Shown here one piece after another: positions 46,198-55,996 of a DNA stretch of 64,000 nucleotides. Each line of letters opens with the position of its first letter. Within the stretch, counting starts at the first letter, position 1. Source of the stretch: Candidatus Magasanikiibacteriota bacterium (lineage in GTDB: Bacteria > Patescibacteriota > Patescibacteriia > Magasanikbacterales > UBA922); NCBI GenBank assembly GCA_041665025.1, contig JBAYJP010000001.1:16207-80206 (forward strand), given 5' to 3'. Made by a program: the position numbers and the translations under genes. The notes under the pieces were generated by a model, which saw nothing but the letters and a program-made list of their open reading frames with translations, ran no database searches and had not been told where the DNA came from.

Positions 46198-47217
46198 CTA
46201 TATTTCTTCCACTATTTCTTCTATTTCTTCAATTGTATTCACTCGTACCAATTTACTCCGAATCTCTTTCATTCCTTCCAACCCTTTAAAATAAAAAGCT
46301 AAATGTTTCCGCAGTCCTACTATTCCCCTTTCCCCATAGTGCTGAATTTGAAGTTGAGCATGACGTAATATCACATCTTTTCTTTCTTGCAACGAAATTA
46401 GTGATCGATGATTAGCAATCGACGATAACAACCAGGGGTTCCCCAAGGCTCCTCGTCCAATCATTACTCCATCTGCTCCGGTCGTCTCTAAACATCGCTC
46501 AATATCTTCAGGCGAAGTAATATCTCCATTCGCTATCACGGGTATTTTAACACACTTCTTCGCCTCCCCTATCATCTCCCAGTTTGCCTTTCCACTATAG
46601 CCCTGGACTTTTGTCCTTCCGTGGATCGAAAGAGCATCAACACCAGCCTGTTCTAGCTTTTGCGCAAATTCCAGTATTTCACCTTCTTTAGACCATCCAA
46701 GACGGGTTTTAACACTTATAGGAACCCCCAAATTGGCGTTTTTGAGGGCTTTTACTATCTCTACCGCCCTATTGTGGTCTTTCATAAGCGCAGCGCCAGA
46801 ATCAGCCTTTCCAGCTATTTTCGGAACAGGGCAACCCATATTGATGTCTACCCCAAATTCATCCCGAGCGGAGCGGAGCGGAGAGAAGGGTCTTTCGAAG
46901 GATTCCATTTTTGGATTAAAAAATTTCTCTGTAATAATACGAGCCGCTTCTACAATCACCTCCGGCTTACTTCCAAACAACTGTAACACAATCGACCTCT
47001 CAATTTCTTCAAACTTGCACATGTTTAATGTCTTTTCATTGCCACGCACAATCGCCTCTGCACTAACCATTTCTCTAAAAATTATAAATTCTTTATGTAT
47101 TCCTTTTTCCTTTTTCCTTAATTCTTGTACCTCTCTACATAATATCGAAAACGGCTGATCTGTATAGTCAGCCATAGGCGCGAGAGCAATGATTGGTTTG
47201 TTTTCAATCCATGTCAT
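46198..47217 (-). CDS. tRNA-dihydrouridine synthase (DusB-like)
   Basis: FMN-binding TIM barrel (LAPMADYTD, NMGCP, catalytic Cys region). Contains (GAGCG)x3 at 46866-46880. Confidence 0.8.
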   Translation of the reverse strand: MTWIENKPIIALAPMADYTDQPFSILCREVQELRKKEKGIHKEFIIFREMVSAEAIVRGNEKTLNMCKFEEIERSIVLQLFGSKPEVIVEAARIITEKFFNPKMESFERPFSPLRSARDEFGVDINMGCPVPKIAGKADSGAALMKDHNRAVEIVKALKNANLGVPISVKTRLGWSKEGEILEFAQKLEQAGVDALSIHGRTKVQGYSGKANWEMIGEAKKCVKIPVIANGDITSPEDIERCLETTGADGVMIGRGALGNPWLLSSIANHRSLISLQERKDVILRHAQLQIQHYGERGIVGLRKHLAFYFKGLEGMKEIRSKLVRVNTIEEIEEIVEEI

Positions 47218-48035
47218 ATATCAAGCGGACTTTTTATTTCTGCTAAATTATTCCTCGCCACATGCGTATAAATCTGTGTCGTTTGCAACTTCGCATGACC
47301 CAATAGTTCTTGAATATACCTGATATCTGTCCCGTTTTCAAGCAAATGAGTAGCAAAACTATGGCGCAAAGTGTGGGGAGAGACTTTTTTTCTCAAACCA
47401 GCTTTTTGCGCCGCCTGCGAGACAATTTTTTGTATTGTCGCCTCAGTCAGCCTTTCTCCTCTTCCATTGGTAAAAAGAAAGTCATCTTTATTTTTCAACC
47501 CAGCTTGGACTTCCAAAATAGATAACAATTTTCTAGGCAATACAACCAGCCTATCTTTCTTACCCTTACCTTGAAACACCCTCAACATTTTTCTATCTAT
47601 ATCAATATCACACATCTTGATATGTGTCAGTTCACTTACGCGCACTCCGGTACCATACAATAAACTGATGATACAATTATGTTTGGGGTTGGTAGTCACC
47701 TCTATCATTTTATTCACTTCTTCTTTTGATAAAACAACGGGTAAATACTTATTTTTCTTAGGTTGCTTGATATGTAAAAAAAAATTTCTTTTCCAAATCT
47801 GGCCATAATAAAAATGAAGAGCGTTGTAAGCTACTGCAACGGTACTAGAAGAAACTTTTTGTCCCAAATAATCTAAATAATTTTTAATGTCCTCGGTATT
47901 AGCTTCTCGCGGATCTTTCTGGCAAAACCGCAACAACTCTTCATTATAATGAACATAAGAATCAATAGTGCTTCGACTATAGTTACGGATCCTCAATTCT
48001 CTTTCTAAATTGGAAAAAGTATTGTTTTCCAACAT
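47214..48035 (-). CDS. Tyrosine site-specific recombinase (XerC/D / integrase family)
   Basis: R...HxLRHSFATHLL...LLGHAKLQTTQIYTHV catalytic R-H-R-Y constellation. ATGA overlap with dusB; divergent from the downstream array. Confidence 0.8.
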   Translation of the reverse strand: MLENNTFSNLERELRIRNYSRSTIDSYVHYNEELLRFCQKDPREANTEDIKNYLDYLGQKVSSSTVAVAYNALHFYYGQIWKRNFFLHIKQPKKNKYLPVVLSKEEVNKMIEVTTNPKHNCIISLLYGTGVRVSELTHIKMCDIDIDRKMLRVFQGKGKKDRLVVLPRKLLSILEVQAGLKNKDDFLFTNGRGERLTEATIQKIVSQAAQKAGLRKKVSPHTLRHSFATHLLENGTDIRYIQELLGHAKLQTTQIYTHVARNNLAEIKSPLDI

Positions 48036-48302
48036 ACTTAGTGATAAAATATCATCAACCTATACCCTACTGGGGTATAAGCAAAAATTCACAAAAATTA
48101 TAGCATAACTAAGCCTTTTATGCCAAAAGTTGGCATAAAGGTAGTTAGGCGAAATATTCCTTTTCTTTTTTGGGCTATCGCCCAATTGTTTTAAAAAATT
48201 TTAAAATTTCTTTTTCATTAATTAAAGAGGGGAAAAAGGTGTTTTCTCCGCTCCGCTACGAAAACGATTTATTTATAAGGGGAAAACTAATACAATAACC
48301 AC

Positions 48303-49964
48303 ATGAACAAAAAAATCATAAAATTATCAGTGTTTCTGCTTATCGGTCATTTTTTTATTTTCCCCGAAGCCGCCCATGCAGTAATTCCGCCGGATTTTAT
48401 TTTTAATATCGGAACACAGATAGCTCAATTCTTTTCGATAATTGCAATATTTTTTACTGCCATTCTTGGAACATTTTTTCAGTTTTTCAAGACAAGATAT
48501 TATGCACTTAAACATAAAAAAATAATTCTAAGCCTAACTATCATTGGAATTATAGCAGTATCTCTTACCTCATCTTATTTTTACGCAACATACAAACAAA
48601 AAGCTGAATATCAAAAGTGGCTCAAAGAAAGCCAACAATATAGTACAAACCAAAATACTCAAAATGCCAATTTAGATTATGATAATGACGGATTAACCGA
48701 TCTTGAAGAAACAAATTTCGGCACTGATCTTAATAATCCTGATACAGACGGCGATGGATATTCCGACGGCGAAGAAGTTAAAAATGGATATAATCCAAAC
48801 GGTCCTGGGAAATTTGGAGAAGAAGGCATAAACGAAGACGCAAATGACCAATTAAATATCGGCACTGAAAGTAACAAGAACATCGATACATCTGCTAAAA
48901 AATTTATCTCCAGTGTAAATGTAACTGATAACGCCGCAAGATTTATTAGTGAATACTACGGAAATATCGCTAACGGCAATTTAGAGCAAGCCTATGAGAT
49001 GTCTAAAAAAACTGTTAGCTTTGAGACCTTTAAGGGTTGGTATCTAAAAACATCTAAAATAACATTAGATAAATTGGTTCGAATTGATGAAAAAAAATCA
49101 TCCATAGAATTAACTTTATACGAGGACGGCACATTCACAAGATATGGCGTTTTGATGACCTTAACTTTACAAAGTGAAATACCAGTAAGAGTTGAGAAAT
49201 CGGAAGTTAAAATTTTGGCTCAAGGGTTGATTAATAATCAAAATATTTCTGTTGATGAAAATAAAACTGCCCAAGAGTATGATTTTTTTACGAAAAATGA
49301 AAACACAAACATACTTGTTACAAATCAAGATTTTAAAAATATCACAGACAGCCAGCAAAGTGATTATATTGTTTTAGACGCAAGAGAAGATATTGAATAC
49401 GAAAATGGCTATTTCCCCGGAAGTTTACATATTCGCTTTGCGGACTTAAAAGCAGGTCGTTGGATCGAATTACCAAAAGATAAGCCTGTTTATGTAATTT
49501 GTTGGTCTGGAATTCGAGGCAAAGAAGTAGCCGAATTTTTGAGAACCAAAAAAATTGTGTCTTCTTATTTGGAGAATGGCGCTAACGGCTGGGTTGAATT
49601 TGGCGGAAAATGGATCGGAGAAATCAAATTCGGGGAAAAATATACAGATCCAAAATATCAAATCGTTTTTAGTACGGATGATGTTAAAAAGAAAGTAACA
49701 GAGGGTGTGGTTCTTGTTGATACGAGAGAACCGTATAAATTCAATCAGTCAAATATAGCAGGAAGCGTCAATATTCCAATTATGTACACTCCAACTATCA
49801 ATCTTGAAAAGACATTTAGCCAAGTTCCAGTGAATAGCAAGGTTATTACAGTATGCGACGGATACGTTAATTGTTTTGATGCTAAAATTACGGGTGTTGA
49901 ACTGGAAAGACGTGGACATCAATTTTTAGGCAGATATAACAAACCTTGGGAATATGAAAAATAA
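48303..49964 (+). CDS. Secreted protein with Ca-binding D-x-D-x-DG repeats and two C-terminal rhodanese domains
   Basis: N-terminal TM/signal, DYDNDGLTDLEE...DTDGDGYSDGEE, rhodanese active-site loops CWSGIRG and CDGYVNC. Confidence 0.6.
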   Translation: MNKKIIKLSVFLLIGHFFIFPEAAHAVIPPDFIFNIGTQIAQFFSIIAIFFTAILGTFFQFFKTRYYALKHKKIILSLTIIGIIAVSLTSSYFYATYKQKAEYQKWLKESQQYSTNQNTQNANLDYDNDGLTDLEETNFGTDLNNPDTDGDGYSDGEEVKNGYNPNGPGKFGEEGINEDANDQLNIGTESNKNIDTSAKKFISSVNVTDNAARFISEYYGNIANGNLEQAYEMSKKTVSFETFKGWYLKTSKITLDKLVRIDEKKSSIELTLYEDGTFTRYGVLMTLTLQSEIPVRVEKSEVKILAQGLINNQNISVDENKTAQEYDFFTKNENTNILVTNQDFKNITDSQQSDYIVLDAREDIEYENGYFPGSLHIRFADLKAGRWIELPKDKPVYVICWSGIRGKEVAEFLRTKKIVSSYLENGANGWVEFGGKWIGEIKFGEKYTDPKYQIVFSTDDVKKKVTEGVVLVDTREPYKFNQSNIAGSVNIPIMYTPTINLEKTFSQVPVNSKVITVCDGYVNCFDAKITGVELERRGHQFLGRYNKPWEYEK

Positions 49965-51996
49965 CGTCATTCAATCTCAAGAGATTGACCAAAATAAAAA
50001 ATATTTAGGTAATAAGACGCTTAATCTACAAAAGCTCGTAGATTGGGGTTTCCATGTTCCAAAATTTATTGCAATACCTTCGCACATCTCTAGCAATTTA
50101 TACTCAGATGAAAATCTGAAAAAAGAAATAGCCCAAGAAGCAATAAGAATTTTGCAATGCAAAAAATATGCAGTGAGATCAAGCGCTTTAATTGAAGACG
50201 GTGAGAACAGGTCATTCGCCGGCCAATTCAACACTAAACTAAACTTATCCAGCAACGAGCTAATTGGAGGAATAGGCGAGGTGTTAAAGCAGGCAAACGA
50301 TTTTCTTCACGATGAACTTGATAAATTTTCAATAATTATTCAGGAATATATTGCACCCGATATTTCGGGAGTTACTTTTACGCGAAATCCACATGGTAGT
50401 AGAGAAATGATAATTGAATACGGATTTTGCGAAGGAGAAAAAATAGTAAGCGGAGAAATAAAACCAGAAAAAACCTCTTTTTATTGGAACGAACAAGACA
50501 TTAAATTGCCCAAACAATTTTTAACAAACCGAGTAATTAAAAAATTCAAAGAAATCGAAAACAAAAGTAAATTTCCGCAAGACATTGAGTGGTGTATTAA
50601 AGACAACAAATTTTATTTGCTACAAACAAGGCCAATAACAACAATTACCAGCAAACAATACGAGCAAATAAATTTTTTAGAAAAACAATTATCGGAAAGA
50701 GAAGAATATTTTTTTGAAAAAACAGAAATTTCAGAAATTGCACCACGACCGACAGAATTTACTCTAAGTCTTTTGAAGACTATTTACTCTCAAAATGGAC
50801 CAGTAAGCAGGGTTTATAAAAAGTACGGCGTTAATTTTACCGATACAAACTTTTTGAAAATTATAGGAAATGAGCTTTTCGTAGATAAAGAAAGAGAAAT
50901 CCAAGGATTGCTTCCATGTTATAGTTATTTGCAAAATCAAAATTTTGTTCCCAAATTCAGCTACTATTCCCAAATGATTCCAACGATAAAAAATCTTTTC
51001 TTTCTAAATAAAATTAGAACGAATGGCTACGAGAAAATATTTCAAGATTTAAAAACAAGAATTGAAACAACTAATCAAGGCAAAAATTATCAAACAGCGT
51101 TAAAAGTTTTTTTAGAGGATTATAAATTAATTTTTGAAACCAACCTCTTATCAGGCTTAGCTATAAAAAAACTAAATTCTCTGCTTAAAAATGAAGTCGT
51201 AAAATTACCAGATATTTTAAATGAAAGCAGTGTTTTTATTGATTTAAATAAATATAAAGTCTCATCACCTCAAAATTTAAAGGGTAATTCTTTAGAAATT
51301 GCTGATGAATCAAATTTTTCAGCTACTGAAAAAACTGAGAGGCAATCAAGCGACAAAGTATCGCAATGGTGGAAAAAAATATCCGATTTCAAGAAAAAAA
51401 TACTTCAAGACAAAATTAAGGAAGCTATAATCTATAATCGTTTAAGAGAATTAGGGAGGTGTTTGACGATCAAAAACATAAACGCAATAAGGAACTTTTT
51501 ATTAAGTTATGCGAAAAATCAAGGATTTAACGACTTACAGAATATTTATTTTACCAGTATCAATGAAGTTATTAATGATCGGGCTGATAAAATAGTTTGT
51601 AAAAAAAGAAAAAATATTTACGACCAATACAATGATTATAAGCTGCCAAACTCAATTACTTCATCATTTATCCAAAAGAGAACAGGAATTTTAGGCGTTT
51701 CCGCAGGATTAACGCAAGGTATTTTGCAAAATCACGAATACCTAGATTCGGAAAAATCAGATGACTCAAAAATTATTTTGTATACTGAAATATTATCGCC
51801 GAACTTAACAAAATATTTTGACAGGATTTCAGGAATTGTTTCAGAAAATGGAGGTTTATTATCGCATTTAGCAATCGTAGCTCGTGAAAATAACATCCCA
51901 GTTATAACTGGATTTTCATTATCAAATAGTATTTTAAAATTAGGCAATTCCGTGCAAATCGACGGTAGTAATGGTAAAATAGAAAAAATACAATAA
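49954..51996 (+). CDS. PEP-utilising-enzyme family phosphotransferase (PpsA-type ATP-grasp N-domain + C-terminal phosphohistidine swivel domain; rifampin-phosphotransferase-like architecture)
   Basis: SSALIEDGENRSFAGQFNT near the N-terminus and GGLLSHLAIVARENNIPVITG at the C-terminus; no TIM-barrel PEP domain. Confidence 0.6.
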   Translation: MKNNVIQSQEIDQNKKYLGNKTLNLQKLVDWGFHVPKFIAIPSHISSNLYSDENLKKEIAQEAIRILQCKKYAVRSSALIEDGENRSFAGQFNTKLNLSSNELIGGIGEVLKQANDFLHDELDKFSIIIQEYIAPDISGVTFTRNPHGSREMIIEYGFCEGEKIVSGEIKPEKTSFYWNEQDIKLPKQFLTNRVIKKFKEIENKSKFPQDIEWCIKDNKFYLLQTRPITTITSKQYEQINFLEKQLSEREEYFFEKTEISEIAPRPTEFTLSLLKTIYSQNGPVSRVYKKYGVNFTDTNFLKIIGNELFVDKEREIQGLLPCYSYLQNQNFVPKFSYYSQMIPTIKNLFFLNKIRTNGYEKIFQDLKTRIETTNQGKNYQTALKVFLEDYKLIFETNLLSGLAIKKLNSLLKNEVVKLPDILNESSVFIDLNKYKVSSPQNLKGNSLEIADESNFSATEKTERQSSDKVSQWWKKISDFKKKILQDKIKEAIIYNRLRELGRCLTIKNINAIRNFLLSYAKNQGFNDLQNIYFTSINEVINDRADKIVCKKRKNIYDQYNDYKLPNSITSSFIQKRTGILGVSAGLTQGILQNHEYLDSEKSDDSKIILYTEILSPNLTKYFDRISGIVSENGGLLSHLAIVARENNIPVITGFSLSNSILKLGNSVQIDGSNGKIEKIQ

Positions 51997-52119
51997 GGTG
52001 TTTTGGGCTACGGGCATTCACCCCTTTAATTCCCCTCTGCCCTTCGCCCAAAACGGAAAAAGAAATTTGAAAATTTTTTAAAACAACCAACTATCATCGG
52101 AAAAGAAAAGGAATACATC

Positions 52120-52221
52120 AGCTAACACGGCATATCTGGTTACGGCTTTTATACAAAAGCCTCCATCCATATTTGCCTTCGCTACGCTACGGCAAACATC
52201 AGATATGCCGATACGTTAGAC
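52120..52221 (+). repeat. attC-like imperfect palindromic intergenic repeat (site 1)
   Basis: 5' AGCTAAC-a-CGGCATATCTG ... CAGATATGCCG-atac-GTTAGAC 3'. The GTTAGAC end matches GTTRRRY, with bulged bases and internal hairpins. Confidence 0.35.
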
Positions 52222-52284
52222 GAAATAAATTATTTTTTCCTGTCCGATTTTTCAATTTTAATGGAAGGGGGTGAATTTTTGTGA

Positions 52285-53355
52285 TTGTTGACGAGGGGTA
52301 ATAATGGTATAAATAAACTTATGACAGAAAATAACTTTTCTCGGCCTACATTTTTAAAACCTGAGATAAAACTTGAAGCTGGTTACACCGATCCGGAAAA
52401 TGATGAAAAACATTTTTACCATGGAAATTTTGTAGTTGTGGCAGATCTAAAAAATATACCAAAAGAAATACGTGAAAAAATTCCTGGCGGATATATCTTA
52501 AAACAATATCAATCTGAAGAATACTCACCCAATTGGAATGAACTATTTGAAGCGGACAAAGAAGTAAATACAAATACAGCAGAAAAAAAAGGAACATGGG
52601 TGATTATCGACGCATTTGAAGACGCCTTTAACAAATTTGGTAGACGGCCGACTGTCAATGAAGTTCTTACTCTAATTTCAGACGACAAAAAAAGCGAAAT
52701 GGCTATCGATGAAAATTTTATCGTTCAAACACTAAAAAAATACTCTTTGGAAACAAAGGCTCGAAAACTTAAAAAACGCTATGAAGAAATAAAAAACGTT
52801 TTTTCAGATGAATTACCAAATATAATATTACCAACGCAATTTATTATTGGTGCTGAAGAAAACCGACAACACCCGGATCGCGATGGAGCAAAACGACTTT
52901 ACGAATTACAACCAAAAATCAATGCTTTAAAGTTACGCGGTACAAGGCCGGTACATGAATATCTCCATACTGGAGGCAATCCTGGAAAAAATTTTCTATA
53001 CGATAGCCCTCACGTACCAATACCAGAAAACATTATTAACATCGTAAAAATGTGGGCAAAACAGATAAAAGAAACCTTTCCAAAACAATGTGCGCAAATA
53101 AAAGAGGAACTTGAAAAATTTATTGAACTGGCACGTCCAATCCCAGAAAAAATGAATGAGATACCACACGATATGGTTCATCCTGTGAATGTTGGATTTA
53201 CAGCTGATGGCATTAGAATATTTGATATAAATTTAGTATTACCTAATTTGGATAAAGACGATAAACGGCGTAAAACTCTTTTTAATCCGGACATTTGGCT
53301 TGCTCGGTATAATCGCTTGTTAGATATTTGGAAAATAGTTTACGACGAATTGTAA
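52285..53355 (+). CDS. Hypothetical protein with kinase-like (APH/choline-kinase) catalytic-loop signature
   Basis: HDMVHPVNVGFTADGIRIFDINLV resembles the HGDxHPGN...IDxE Brenner/DFG-like region. Confidence 0.35.
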   Translation: MLTRGNNGINKLMTENNFSRPTFLKPEIKLEAGYTDPENDEKHFYHGNFVVVADLKNIPKEIREKIPGGYILKQYQSEEYSPNWNELFEADKEVNTNTAEKKGTWVIIDAFEDAFNKFGRRPTVNEVLTLISDDKKSEMAIDENFIVQTLKKYSLETKARKLKKRYEEIKNVFSDELPNIILPTQFIIGAEENRQHPDRDGAKRLYELQPKINALKLRGTRPVHEYLHTGGNPGKNFLYDSPHVPIPENIINIVKMWAKQIKETFPKQCAQIKEELEKFIELARPIPEKMNEIPHDMVHPVNVGFTADGIRIFDINLVLPNLDKDDKRRKTLFNPDIWLARYNRLLDIWKIVYDEL

Positions 53356-53460
53356 ACCACGGAGTAGGCGCAATTCACCCCTGCCCCTCTTGCTCCCCAC
53401 CAACGAAAAAATTCCCCCCCTACATTTGATAAAATCGGACAGAAAAAAATAATTTACATC

Positions 53461-53540
53461 GTACAACACCGAGTATCTGGTTTCGCTTCGCTTCACCCAT
53501 ATTGCTATCGCAACATCAGATACTCGGATATTGTGCTTAT
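53461..53540 (+). repeat. attC-like imperfect palindromic intergenic repeat (site 2)
   Basis: GTACAAC-ACCGAGTATCTGG ... CAGATACTCGG-atatt-GTGC; shares a central TTCGCTTCGCTTCACCCATATTGCTATCGCAACATC with site 4. Confidence 0.35.
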
Positions 53541-53560
53541 TTATCTTTTAAAATATTCTT

Positions 53561-54073
53561 ATGAAAACATTACTAATATCGATGATGGTCATCTCAGTAT
53601 TGATTCTAAACGGATGTACTAAAGAACGGCCTCAACCAAATTCTCTCAACGAAAAATCGACAATTAACGAAGTATCACCCACTCCAAATATTACTCAAGA
53701 AAAGAAGATGGCTGATTTTACGACAAGCTATATCCCGGACAGCTGGGTTATCGAAGAAAATTTTTTCTACAGTCCTGAAATGTATAATGCGCGAGAAGGT
53801 GGTCCCTATAGTTTGAACATTAATATAAACGAAAAATTTTCTTCTATAGACAATTATCTTAAAGATAAGAGCAATTGCGTTACAGATAAGACAGAATTTA
53901 AAATAAACAATTACCCAGCCGTCCGGTTTACGGATTCTTGCGCCTATGGGAAGCCTAAAATGACTCTTATGCAAATAAACGAGAATTTGGTTGAGGCTTT
54001 TAGCTATTCTTTTTCTGATGAATCAAAAGCAATAGTCAAAATATTGGAAACATTGGATATAAAAAATAAATAA
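53561..54073 (+). CDS. Hypothetical lipoprotein
   Basis: Signal peptide with lipobox (LNGC). Confidence 0.4.
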   Translation: MKTLLISMMVISVLILNGCTKERPQPNSLNEKSTINEVSPTPNITQEKKMADFTTSYIPDSWVIEENFFYSPEMYNAREGGPYSLNININEKFSSIDNYLKDKSNCVTDKTEFKINNYPAVRFTDSCAYGKPKMTLMQINENLVEAFSYSFSDESKAIVKILETLDIKNK

Positions 54074-54154
54074 GCACAACAGCGTATAACACGCTATATC
54101 CAAAATTTACTACGCTACGCTTTAGTAAACTTCGGATATAGCGATACGTTATGT
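54074..54154 (+). repeat. attC-like imperfect palindromic intergenic repeat (site 3)
   Basis: GCACAAC-ag-CGTAT-aacac-GCTATATCC ... GGATATAGC-g-ATACG-TTATGT. Confidence 0.35.
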
Positions 54155-54246
54155 GCCATAATAAAAAACCATTTATGTTTGACTTCTTAAAATTATTGTG
54201 GTAATTTCTATCTAAGATACTTTTATTTATTTTTAACATAAAATCT

Positions 54247-54504
54247 ATGGGCGAATTCAATTTAGAGGCAGAAGCTGCCGCTGCAGCAGCACGCACAGAT
54301 AGAGGAGTGCAAGAAAATGTATTTCGAGGATTACCGGAAGTACAACTTTCTTCTTTTACTCCCGAAATGGCTGCTGCATTAAGAAGCATGGATACCGAGA
54401 ATCCCGTACTAGAAAATGCAGAATTACAAGCTTATGTTGATACGCTTACTAAAGCCCAGCGCGACCAGCTCCAATCACAGGCTAGCAATGTAGACCCAGA
54501 ATAA
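54247..54504 (+). CDS. Small acidic Ala-rich hypothetical protein
   Basis: ORF with a hairpin terminator downstream (54568-54606). Confidence 0.3.
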   Translation: MGEFNLEAEAAAAAARTDRGVQENVFRGLPEVQLSSFTPEMAAALRSMDTENPVLENAELQAYVDTLTKAQRDQLQSQASNVDPE

Positions 54505-54752
54505 ATTACCACAACAATTTTAAGTAATGGTTTTTTATTACGTCACATAACAACCGATATCAGGTTCAAAAAATAGTGCTTTTCAATTTTAGTGGAAGCA
54601 CTATTTTTTTCTCCCATATGCCGGTACTTGAATTGTAAGTCTAAAGCGTTTACAATGAATGGTAGTGAAGTCAAAGAGTGTGCTAAAACAATGGCGCCAC
54701 TTCTGATATCGGCGAACATTGCACAAAATAAAAATTTAATTATTTTGCTACC

Positions 54753-55490
54753 ATGAAATTCAAAGAAGGATACAAATATACAAACCTCACCGGATACATA
54801 AATATTTTTTCCAACCCTCAATGGTATTTGGATACACAATCTGAACTCAAGGAATTTTTTTATGATTACGATGGTAATAAGGAAAACAAATCGCAAGAAT
54901 GGCTCGAGAAAAGAAACGAATTTGTAAAAATGGTTTGTGAACTTTTAGAAGCAGACCAAATTGCTCTTGGTGATTCTGGAATAAACTGGGATAAGGATCG
55001 TTCGCCAATAGATACAATTGTTATACACCATACCAGTACGCCATCAGACATCCCCATTGCAGCAATTAATGCACTAGGATTGATTCGTTTGTATGCACCA
55101 AATTACAGCAAAAAAGATGAAGAGCAATTTGGTCAACCAATTTGGTCAAACCATTTTTACAAAAACAGACAAACATTCATTGCTTATCATTACATAATCA
55201 GACAGGACGGGTCTTTTGAACATATACTACAAGATAACCAAACAGGTTGGCATTGTGGAAATTGGGATTATAACTGCCGAAGTATTGCGATTTGTTTTCT
55301 TGATGATCTAAAAGAAAAAAGACCGACTGAAAAAGCACTTCGAACAGCAAATGAAATCATAAAAAAATATCCAAATTGTAATATCCTAGGTCATAGAGAA
55401 ATTAAACCCACAACGACTTGCCCAGGTAATCTGTTTCTAGAGAAAGATGGTTGGAAAAACGACGTATTTCTGAAACCGCAAAATAATTAA
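54753..55490 (+). CDS. N-acetylmuramoyl-L-alanine amidase (amidase_2 / PGRP fold)
   Basis: IVIHHTS, AYHYII, GWHCGNW, ILGHREI...TCPG zinc-amidase motifs. Confidence 0.7.
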   Translation: MKFKEGYKYTNLTGYINIFSNPQWYLDTQSELKEFFYDYDGNKENKSQEWLEKRNEFVKMVCELLEADQIALGDSGINWDKDRSPIDTIVIHHTSTPSDIPIAAINALGLIRLYAPNYSKKDEEQFGQPIWSNHFYKNRQTFIAYHYIIRQDGSFEHILQDNQTGWHCGNWDYNCRSIAICFLDDLKEKRPTEKALRTANEIIKKYPNCNILGHREIKPTTTCPGNLFLEKDGWKNDVFLKPQNN

Positions 55491-55500
55491 ATTTTTACAT

Positions 55501-55579
55501 CGCACAACAGCGTGTATGCGGTTCCGCTTCGCTCCACCCATATTGCTAACGCAACATCGTATATACGCGGACGTTATAC
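55501..55579 (+). repeat. attC-like imperfect palindromic intergenic repeat (site 4)
   Basis: CGCACAAC-ag-CGTGTAT ... ATATACG-cggac-GTTATAC; the central part is ~85% identical to site 2. Confidence 0.35.
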
Positions 55580-55663
55580 GAAATAAATTTTTTCTTTTTA
55601 TTTTTCTCAAATGACTTACAATAGACATTATGGAAATAATGTTGATAAGACTAAACGATTAAA

Positions 55664-55909
55664 ATGCCAAATAACAAAAATACAAACTTTAGAAAGCTAT
55701 ACTCACATTTAGAATCAACTATAATAATATTTTTGTGGATTTCTATTTTCTTTTGGATCTTTTATGAAGGTTCGATTAATGCGGGTATTTGGGGAAAATG
55801 GAAAGGCTTAGAGATCATATTTCCACTCATCATTTCTTTCTTCATCTCATCAATTATAATATTGCCTCTGTATTTAATAAAAATATTTTTCAAAAGCAAG
55901 AAAAAATAA
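55664..55909 (+). CDS. Small membrane protein
   Basis: Two TM helices. Confidence 0.3.
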   Translation: MPNNKNTNFRKLYSHLESTIIIFLWISIFFWIFYEGSINAGIWGKWKGLEIIFPLIISFFISSIIILPLYLIKIFFKSKKK

Positions 55910-55996
55910 CAAGCTTTCAAAGGGGAATAAATTTGATTTATTTAAAAAGAAAAAACTTATATAATACCTACACCTTTTAGTTAATAAGAGATCAAT

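Follow-up and report, generated by a model that had tools for sequence, protein, structure and literature searches.

Rifampin phosphotransferase (RPH) of Listeria (RPH-Lm, 5FBS/5HV1; EC 2.7.9.6) consists of an ATP-grasp domain, a helical acceptor-binding domain and a C-terminal swivel domain that carries the catalytic His. Its structure revealed that K22, R117 and T136 position ATP, that E297 binds Mg, that H825 carries the phosphate and that the second transfer is driven by an R666-E667(-K670) dyad in the central domain (PMC4844700); the signature of the swivel domain is T/SxxGGxxxH (PMC12167813). HpeHI, CreHI and phenylphosphate synthase (PpsAB) convert ATP to AMP + Pi and use a swivel His to phosphorylate a hydroxyl acceptor; they are composed of two polypeptides that are encoded in aromatic-catabolism clusters. 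Phosphoenolpyruvate (PEP) synthase and pyruvate, phosphate dikinase (PPDK) have homologous ATP-grasp and swivel His domains, but the His domain is central and a TIM barrel is present. Here, we describe a gene for a predicted enzyme of this group in a 64,000-nucleotide stretch of contig JBAYJP010000001.1 (the window, to which all coordinates refer unless a locus is named) from a Candidatus Magasanikiibacteriota bacterium, a member of the Patescibacteria. The original prediction, made from the letters of the window, was that this open reading frame (ORF1) and the next one (ORF2) encode two adjacent xenobiotic kinases, one RPH-like and one similar to aminoglycoside phosphotransferases (APH), carried as resistance or detoxification cargo in a cassette-like array. 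Our reading, to which we assign a probability of about 0.7, is that the window contains two independent cassettes and no two-kinase system: one cassette holds an operon of a membrane protein (the partner) and an RPH-type dikinase with an acceptor other than rifampin, the other holds an unrelated, probably kinase-like orphan. The genes and the parts of ORF1 are as follows.

48303-49964, plus strand: ORF1 partner, a membrane protein with two rhodanese domains; its stop overlaps the ORF1 start by 11 nt
49954-51996, plus strand: ORF1, 680 aa from an ATG start, predicted RPH-type His-swivel dikinase
52321-53355, plus strand: ORF2, 344 aa from an ATG; 356 aa if read from the TTG at 52285
ORF1, about residues 1-235: ATP-grasp domain
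ORF1, about residues 236-575: helical central acceptor domain (predicted), containing R498-E499-x-x-R502
ORF1, about residues 576-680: swivel domain with S630-xxGGxxx-H638

Both ORFs of the original prediction (49954-51996 and 52285-53355) exist and the peptides it had quoted (ALIEDGENRSFAGQFNT, GGLLSHLAIVARENNIPVITG and HDMVHPVNVGFTADGIRIFDINLV) are present. In Pfam, ORF1 matched the PPDK_N ATP-grasp family (4.7e-30) and the PEP-utilizers mobile domain (2.5e-16, residues 606-674 of 680); a PEP-binding TIM barrel was not found in the Pfam scan, which gave no PEP-utilizers_C match. Thus, the ATP-grasp N-terminus, the C-terminal phosphohistidine swivel and the missing barrel had been recognised correctly. 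A PHROGs search re-identified the ATP-grasp domain as 'kinase' and nothing else. The closest sequence in the PDB was RPH-Lm, with an E value of 1.6e-27 for the single sequence and of 1e-51 for a profile of 35 family members. The AlphaFold (AF2) model of ORF1 (predicted local distance difference test score, pLDDT, 89.2; predicted template modelling score, pTM, 0.82) retrieved full-length RPH (5HV1) as first Foldseek match in the PDB (E 1.1e-29, ~890 aligned columns, 18% identity), followed at lower ranks by PPDK (3.7e-12) and by the ATP-grasp protein HpeI (9GOJ, 1e-8), which matches the N-terminus of ORF1. K21, R75, T94, E212 and H638 of ORF1 correspond to K22, R117, T136, E297 and H825 of RPH-Lm, R498-E499-x-x-R502 aligns with R666-E667-x-x-K670, and the swivel signature T/S-xx-GG-xxx-H is found as S630-ENGGLLS-H638. 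These positions are invariant or nearly so in the 35 homologs, down to 41% identity. The three-part design of RPH that had been proposed for ORF1 was therefore corroborated by sequence, by fold and by the aligned catalytic His and, because all catalytic residues of RPH are kept, ORF1 is predicted to be capable of both half-reactions of an RPH-type dikinase.

The two proteins have the order of the domains, the K/R/T/E residues of the ATP site, the R-E(-K/R) dyad and the catalytic His in common, but ORF1 is about 185 aa shorter than RPH-Lm, with an overall identity of 18% and a far shorter central domain. For residues 317-618 of RPH, which include the contacts to rifampin, no alignable counterpart was found in ORF1, even with the family profile, and the residues of the rifampin pocket region (Q336, Q337, Y351, V368, L478, F479 and T523) are without aligned equivalent; this weighs against our reading. 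The NCBIfam models of PEP synthase, RPH and PigC/RedH matched ORF1 in pieces only and all far under their cutoffs; the RPH models NF041857 / NF000283 gave 114.4 bits against a cutoff of 999 and 79.8 bits against 1700. Since the acceptor pocket is not conserved, ORF1 should work like RPH without being an RPH and we are confident, from alignment and model, that it is a three-domain RPH-type His-swivel dikinase, whose acceptor would be something other than rifampin. A true RPH was rejected because of the sub-cutoff scores and the unalignable contact region, a PEP synthase or PPDK because ORF1 has no barrel, carries its His domain at the C-terminus and stays far under the cutoff of all such models, and a PigC/RedH-like ligase, for which the NCBIfam scores were similar, because no pigment or biosynthetic cluster is encoded nearby. 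Beyond the catalytic machinery ORF1 has none of the marks of an RPH that were compared, nothing points to resistance, and a resistance-gene label on its homologs is not justified by the RPH membership tests.

Public names of the homologs vary ('Sulfurtransferase, partial', 'rifampicin phosphotransferase', 'pyruvate, water dikinase', 'PEP/pyruvate-binding domain-containing protein'); inconsistently named examples are P0019 / L013 of Candidatus Uhrbacteria GW2011_GWF2_39_13 and P0050.

The gene that belongs with ORF1 is located upstream of it and had been left out of the span 49954-53355 originally marked. Rhodanese (3.2e-20, two stretches) and TSP3_bac (2.5e-8) matches were obtained for its product in Pfam, and reading from the N-terminus it is made up as follows.

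Partner, N-terminal part: signal-peptide-like N-terminus (AxA|V), PPDFIF motif and two transmembrane helices
Partner, following part: TSP3 Ca-binding repeats and two rhodanese domains
Partner, Cys loops of the rhodanese domains: C400-WSGIRG and C518-DxYVNC524

A TSP3/rhodanese gene lies immediately upstream of the ORF1 homolog, with its stop overlapping the start, in four out of four Pfam-annotated neighbourhoods. Six-frame hidden Markov model searches of loci fetched from 80 species-level genomes, 77 of them evaluable, revealed a partner ortholog directly upstream and on the same strand in 73/77 cases, with an overlap of mostly 4-7 nt; in one further locus it is located downstream. An N-terminus ending in AxA|V, the motif PPDFIF..IG.Q, two transmembrane helices with a short basic loop and both rhodanese active-site loops (C400-WSGIRG and C518-D.YVNC-FDAK) are kept across 61 partner orthologs, which vary in the TSP3 region. 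ORF1 has more than 400 homologs with a length of about 680 aa and, in a scan of one genome per species, the family is carried by at least 122 species, almost all of them Patescibacteria (Falkow-, Uhr-, Moranii-, Komeili-, Doudna-, Peregrini/Peri- and Gracilibacteria, Paceibacterota and metagenome-assembled genomes labelled Saccharibacteria). The complete genome of the cultured Minisyncoccus archaeiphilus PMX.108 encodes the partner and dikinase operon as well (NZ_AP038758.1:220942-234945, locus L023; 44% identity). A Bdellovibrionota contig of 3.26 Mb also carries the family, which is therefore not strictly confined to Patescibacteria. These data show that partner and ORF1 are a real unit, a translationally coupled operon native to Patescibacteria; no description of this pairing was found in the literature searched. 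In its coupling to the partner and its conservation across Patescibacteria, ORF1 differs from RPH as a sporadic resistance gene.

From the positive-inside rule and the Ca-binding TSP3 repeats we infer that the rhodanese domains face the outside of the cell; ORF1 lacks a signal peptide and would be cytoplasmic, so that it is difficult to see how a reactant could pass directly from one protein to the other. In ~11 distant loci the rhodanese domains are gone and only the membrane module of ~100 aa persists. It stands by itself there or is joined to another domain, of ~300 aa and without Pfam match, which in L005 is encoded by an ORF of its own that separates partner and dikinase (fused against separate form, BLASTP E 2e-8). 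Both observations count against our reading. From the second it follows that the membrane module is the invariant companion of the dikinase, and the rhodanese chemistry may be accessory. A selenophosphate- or thiophosphate-synthetase-like role of ORF1, fed by the rhodanese, was rejected for the same reasons: the rhodanese domains seem to lie outside the cytoplasm, and some lineages do not have them. The deviating companions are listed below; the set with the module only includes the Bdellovibrionota contig of 3.26 Mb, and the ~300-aa third component has the motifs FYSD, HYY, GDFxxKNxPEYT, LWDxxGxFY and SHxW.

L071:5693-6019, L031:4658-5119, L049:4716-5045, L070:5354-5947: module-only companions of ~100 aa (signal peptide, PPDF motif, two transmembrane helices)
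L005:5100-6014, L025:3781-4989, and in L058, L060, L067, L068, L072 and L085: third component, upstream of the ORF1 homolog

As for the reaction, the ATP-grasp domain of ORF1 would bind ATP via K21, R75, T94 and E212, H638 on the swivel domain would take over the beta-phosphate with release of AMP + Pi, and the swivel domain would carry this phosphate, with the help of R498-E499(-R502), to an acceptor bound in the central helical domain. The predicted chemistry is that of HpeHI, CreHI and PpsAB, from which ORF1 differs in being a single chain without catabolic context. The acceptor is most likely a small hydroxyl-bearing metabolite which would be trapped or activated by phosphorylation, in a process linked in function to the membrane partner, because relatives of known function that share the central domain use small molecules with a hydroxyl group. 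For HpeHI it has been proposed that scavenged compounds are trapped by phosphorylation (PMC12167813), which would suit a scavenging symbiont. Alternatively, the acceptor could be macromolecular or membrane-associated, such as the cytoplasmic loop of the partner or a lipid-linked or envelope precursor, or the phosphate could enter a group-translocation-like step coupled to the two-helix module. We consider this unlikely: all lineages indeed retain the ~100-aa module and no other part of the partner, the overlap of stop and start suggests stoichiometric co-production, other kinase roles have evolved in PPDK-derived enzymes such as VadK (PMC13400623), and dikinases of polymers such as GWD exist (PMC13553574), but the characterised RPH-type enzymes with a central helical domain and R-E dyad (RPH, HpeHI, CreHI and PpsAB) all use small molecules and the predicted cytoplasmic loop of the partner comprises only about 11 residues.

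ORF2 most likely starts with the ATG at 52321, and the TTG at 52285 used in the original prediction is an unlikely start, because the NCBI annotation and every homolog begin at MTE..F.RP. The sequence had no match in Pfam, NCBIfam or the PDB sequences. Five homologs were found in an indexed search, a profile re-search added one protein only, and an exhaustive profile search of 1.84e9 proteins gave 49 cluster representatives; ORF2 thus belongs to a rare orphan family. In P0005, a homolog of 308 aa encoded on a contig of 1141 bp, an N-terminal stretch of ~100 aa is unrelated to the family and gave a weak HlyD-like Pfam match; the gene is possibly chimeric or mis-assembled. Among 33 relatives K61 is conserved in 32, D284 in 29 (32 if a shift is allowed), N290 in 32, D302 in 32 and N304 in 30, so that the putative catalytic positions are 88-97% conserved; G35, Y194-E195-x-Q197, T294, G297 and R299 are conserved as well. 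The kinase motif that had been noticed in ORF2 is therefore conserved, with a spacing between Asp and Asn (D284-x5-N290) that departs from the D-x4-N in the HxDxxxxN motif of APH and protein kinases.

The AlphaFold (AF2) model of ORF2 (pLDDT 90.1, pTM 0.88) contains, from the N-terminus, beta1-3 with K61 in strand 58-63, a helical insert, a long helix and beta4-5 ending in YEIQP, followed by helices, the D284..N290 loop, a beta7-8 hairpin (291-300), D302 and a terminal helix. This order of elements is that of a minimal protein-kinase-like fold and, as in RIO kinases, eukaryote-like Ser/Thr kinases and the APH/choline-kinase family, a conserved Lys is predicted to lie in the third strand, an Asp and an Asn in a loop, and a further Asp behind the beta7-beta8 hairpin. 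The Foldseek lists from the PDB and BFVD consisted almost purely of protein kinases (PKR, JAK2, Rio1/2, ROP5, PINK1, MaK and giant-virus Ser/Thr kinases), and a sub-threshold match to StkP aligned the motif of the family with HRDLKPxN...DFG. APH(3')-Ia appeared only at rank 32. The comparison of AlphaFold models that had been suggested as a check agreed with the prediction for ORF1 and gave nothing significant for ORF2. The assignment of ORF2 to the APH was rejected, since no member of the 33 had a Pfam APH match, hhalign of the family against APH(3')-IIa/IIIa sequences returned a probability of 0.09%, and the spacing is D-x5-N; what is left is a resemblance to a generic protein-kinase-like fold below significance.

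Several results argue against a kinase. No fold match was significant (best E 0.023 in the PDB and 0.003 in BFVD; TM score 0.33 or lower), and the family profile found nothing significant among the PDB sequences. No Pfam domain was found in the 33 relatives, and a permissive Pfam scan (E up to 10) of them revealed no enrichment of kinases, with a single RIO1 match at E 0.01. There is no conserved alpha-C Glu, as helix 143-161 has no conserved acidic residue in the family consensus. Further differences to minimal kinases are the non-canonical spacing, a helical insert of ~50 residues in the N-lobe and a very short C-lobe. ORF2 might then be a nucleotide-dependent ligase, ATP-grasp-like or of another kind, or a protein without catalytic function in which the motif has another role. 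The Mg-binding motif of ATP-grasp enzymes is E-x-N, which the DG-x4-D-x-N-x3-P motif of ORF2 also resembles, and the deviations of the fold matches were above 9 Å root mean square. We nevertheless regard such a role as rather doubtful: two independent libraries returned almost exclusively protein kinases and no ATP-grasp proteins, the order of the secondary structure fits the kinase fold, and the StkP alignment covers both the catalytic loop and DFG. Taken together, model and conservation make ORF2 probably a very divergent kinase-like phosphotransferase, and the conserved K61, D284, N290 and D302 suggest an active enzyme, which would probably be ATP-dependent.

No gene of the ORF2 family was found within about 6 kb of an ORF1 homolog in 84 loci (0/84), and the two ORF2 homologs with usable flanks adjoin dCMP deaminase or AMMECR1 genes and no dikinase gene. 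In the window, an attC-like site (about 52120-52221) divides the two genes, which are part of different cassettes. Because of the missing co-occurrence and the unrelated neighbours of the ORF2 homologs, the adjacency of ORF1 and ORF2 is accidental, and ORF2 is functionally unrelated to ORF1. The functional pair of the original prediction did not survive these data, the true partner of ORF1 being the upstream gene. The view that an RPH-like and an APH-like antibiotic kinase form a resistance or detoxification pair can draw on RPH as the nearest solved relative of ORF1, on the location of both genes in mobile cassettes and on the kinases, including APH(3')-Ia, retrieved with the ORF2 model. Set against this are the recombination site that lets both genes move independently, the 114 bits of ORF1 against an RPH cutoff of 999 together with its unaligned rifampin-contact region, the lack of APH homology in ORF2 and the occurrence of the ORF1 family throughout the lineage in a chromosomal operon, together with a membrane partner and free of cassette repeats in 57 of 58 loci. 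Such a pair is therefore highly improbable and already largely refuted by the linkage data.

The array itself resembles sedentary chromosomal integrons in that a divergent IntI-related recombinase gene precedes promoterless-looking cassettes on the same strand, which are joined at G|TT junctions and followed by bottom-strand hairpins of the type R''-L''...L'-R'; in addition, attC sites within the array are related and cassettes recur in different arrays. The features between 47214 and 55960 are as follows.

47214-48035, minus strand: tyrosine recombinase, 273 aa, IntI-related, divergent from the array
48144-48216, plus strand: 5' boundary of cassette 1, GTTAGGCGAAAT core (attI-like junction) and left inverted-repeat arm
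48145-52215, plus strand: cassette 1 (partner and ORF1)
52056-52126, plus strand: right inverted-repeat arm of cassette 1, ending in R''-like GCTAAC
About 52120-52221, plus strand: attC-like site A between cassettes 1 and 2 (R'' GCTAAC, L'' GGCATATCTG, L' CAGATATGCC, R' G|TTAGAC)
52215-52251, plus strand: left inverted-repeat arm of the ORF2 cassette, pairs with 53431-53467
52216-53530, plus strand: cassette 2 (ORF2)
53431-53536, plus strand: right arm of the ORF2 cassette and attC-like site B (R'' GTACAAC, L'' CCGAGTATCTG, L' CAGATACTCGG, R' a|TTGTGC)
53531-54148, plus strand: cassette with a lipoprotein-like ORF of 170 aa
54149-~54718, plus strand: cassette with an ORF of 85 aa and a long attC-like site (54545-54726)
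~54719-55574, plus strand: cassette with an N-acetylmuramoyl-L-alanine amidase gene (54753-55490; Amidase_2, 3.4e-19)
55575-~55960, plus strand: cassette with an 81-aa transmembrane protein
About 52120-52221, 53461-53536, 54073-54154, 54545-54726 and 55497-55580: attC-like sites read from the sequence

Thus, at least six cassettes on the same strand are present, each with terminal inverted repeats of 20-70 nt that reach beyond the R boxes, and each gene is followed by a site with the layout ...AAC / L'' / variable / L' / GTT.... The arms of cassette 1 (48144-48216 / 52056-52126) pair as I2 (31 nt, 97%) and I6 (26 nt, 85%), those of the ORF2 cassette as I1 (37 nt, 86% complementary), and the four small cassettes in 53531-55960 have inverted repeats of their own (I12, I4, I9 and I5). 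The bottom strand of site A folds as single-stranded DNA into a hairpin of -25.5 kcal/mol (z = -5.5; 0/200 shuffles folded as well); the z values were -3.5 for site B, -6.5 for site C (within 53531-55960) and -1.3 for a weak fourth site. The sites at 53432-53522 and 55473-55563 are 78% identical over 91 nt (D1).

Recurrence on other contigs was observed for both units. In L003, from another metagenome (84% protein identity), the stretch that resembles the window starts precisely with the GTTAG core that precedes the partner gene, spans both genes and the attC-like site and ends ~17 nt past the next GTTAGACGAAAT core, the flanking cassettes being different; the right arm is identical to that of cassette 1 (AAAAGAAAAGGAATACATCAGCTAAC). 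The ORF2 homolog in L001 has terminal repeats as in the window, but its upstream neighbour is a dCMP deaminase gene. These findings show that the ORF1 unit and the ORF2 unit are independently mobile cassettes bounded at core sites, and the cassette-like array, in contrast to the role proposed for its cargo, was thereby confirmed. Since L003 is the only one of the 58 evaluable species-level loci with cassette repeats around partner and ORF1, the operon is as a rule a chromosomal one, which became a cassette by capture in near relatives of the window.

The recombinase matched Phage_integrase (2.8e-45) and Phage_int_SAM_4 in Pfam and passed the NCBIfam model NF040815, 'XerA/integron integrase' (259 bits, cutoff 220), but failed the IntI model TIGR02249 (234 bits, cutoff 265; match split into two stretches). 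BLASTP against IntI1 gave 32% identity (E 4e-51), with ~42 residues gapped exactly over the IntI-specific additional domain (IntI1 ~190-250). This domain, around patch III, is regarded as defining for integron integrases (PMC9668308). Because the recombinase does not have it, we call the array integron-like and not an integron; the long cassette-specific repeats, which are no feature of classical attC sites, likewise speak against a classical integron, and the host, a patescibacterium, is a further difference to sedentary chromosomal integrons. Patescibacteria are not mentioned in the integron census literature searched, including PMC9668308. The palindromes between the genes could instead be terminators or repeats similar to repetitive extragenic palindromic (REP) or miniature inverted-repeat transposable (MITE) elements, with the recombinase being a chromosomal XerC/D. 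In line with this, the recombinase is short, has no additional domain and scores well on XerC/XerD models, the fourth site is weak, and the GTTNNNNGAAAT core is not enriched over the whole window (5 found, 5.85 expected), for which reason it was not used as evidence. We hold this to be quite improbable, because gene units bounded exactly at GTT cores recur on other contigs with different neighbours, the repeats are specific to each cassette and not copies of one element, and the layout of the sites and the orientation of the genes fit an integron array with a divergent recombinase.

With respect to the remaining features of the array, the sites 53432-53522 and 55473-55563 share the centre GGTTyCGCTTCGCTyCACCCATATTGCTAwCGCAACATC, and other sites as well as the cassette 1 leader (48250-48262) contain a related CGCTnCGCT motif. 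The lowest GC content of the window (0.305 at 50001-52000, average about 0.37) coincides with ORF1 within cassette 1. The ORFs of 170, 85 and 81 aa are without family assignment, PADLOC gave no defence-system match for 10 cassette proteins, and no tRNA gene that could serve as integration target was found in the window.

In sum, the analysis yielded a new subfamily of RPH-type dikinases that is coupled to a partner and conserved in Patescibacteria, a family of kinase-like orphans and an array which resembles an integron but has a reduced recombinase. It is tempting, but for now tentative, to go further and to see in the membrane module, with or without tandem rhodanese, and the RPH-type dikinase an undescribed Patescibacteria-wide two-component system which in the window has been mobilised by a distinct integron-like platform. 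If so, the dikinase would work at the membrane, for example by capturing a scavenged metabolite through phosphorylation or by acting on an acceptor in the envelope or the partner protein, and would possibly be tied to extracellular sulfur chemistry; the IntI-related recombinase without additional domain and the long-repeat cassettes would extend integron-type capture to bacteria of the candidate phyla radiation (CPR). For annotation, the data call for caution in naming RPH-like proteins from metagenomes as rifamycin-resistance genes, the more so as one source already labels a homolog 'rifampicin phosphotransferase'. The array suggests integron-style gene capture in CPR bacteria with a simpler recombinase which, if confirmed, bears on how reduced genomes acquire genes. 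The genomes of Patescibacteria are tiny and have few recognisable enzymes, and an ATP-consuming dikinase of 680 aa is kept in at least 122 species; since it is kept across the lineage beside the same exported membrane protein, its function is likely relevant to the lifestyle of these bacteria, be it in nutrient capture, envelope chemistry or sulfur handling, and with the operon present in the cultured M. archaeiphilus this function is now open to testing.

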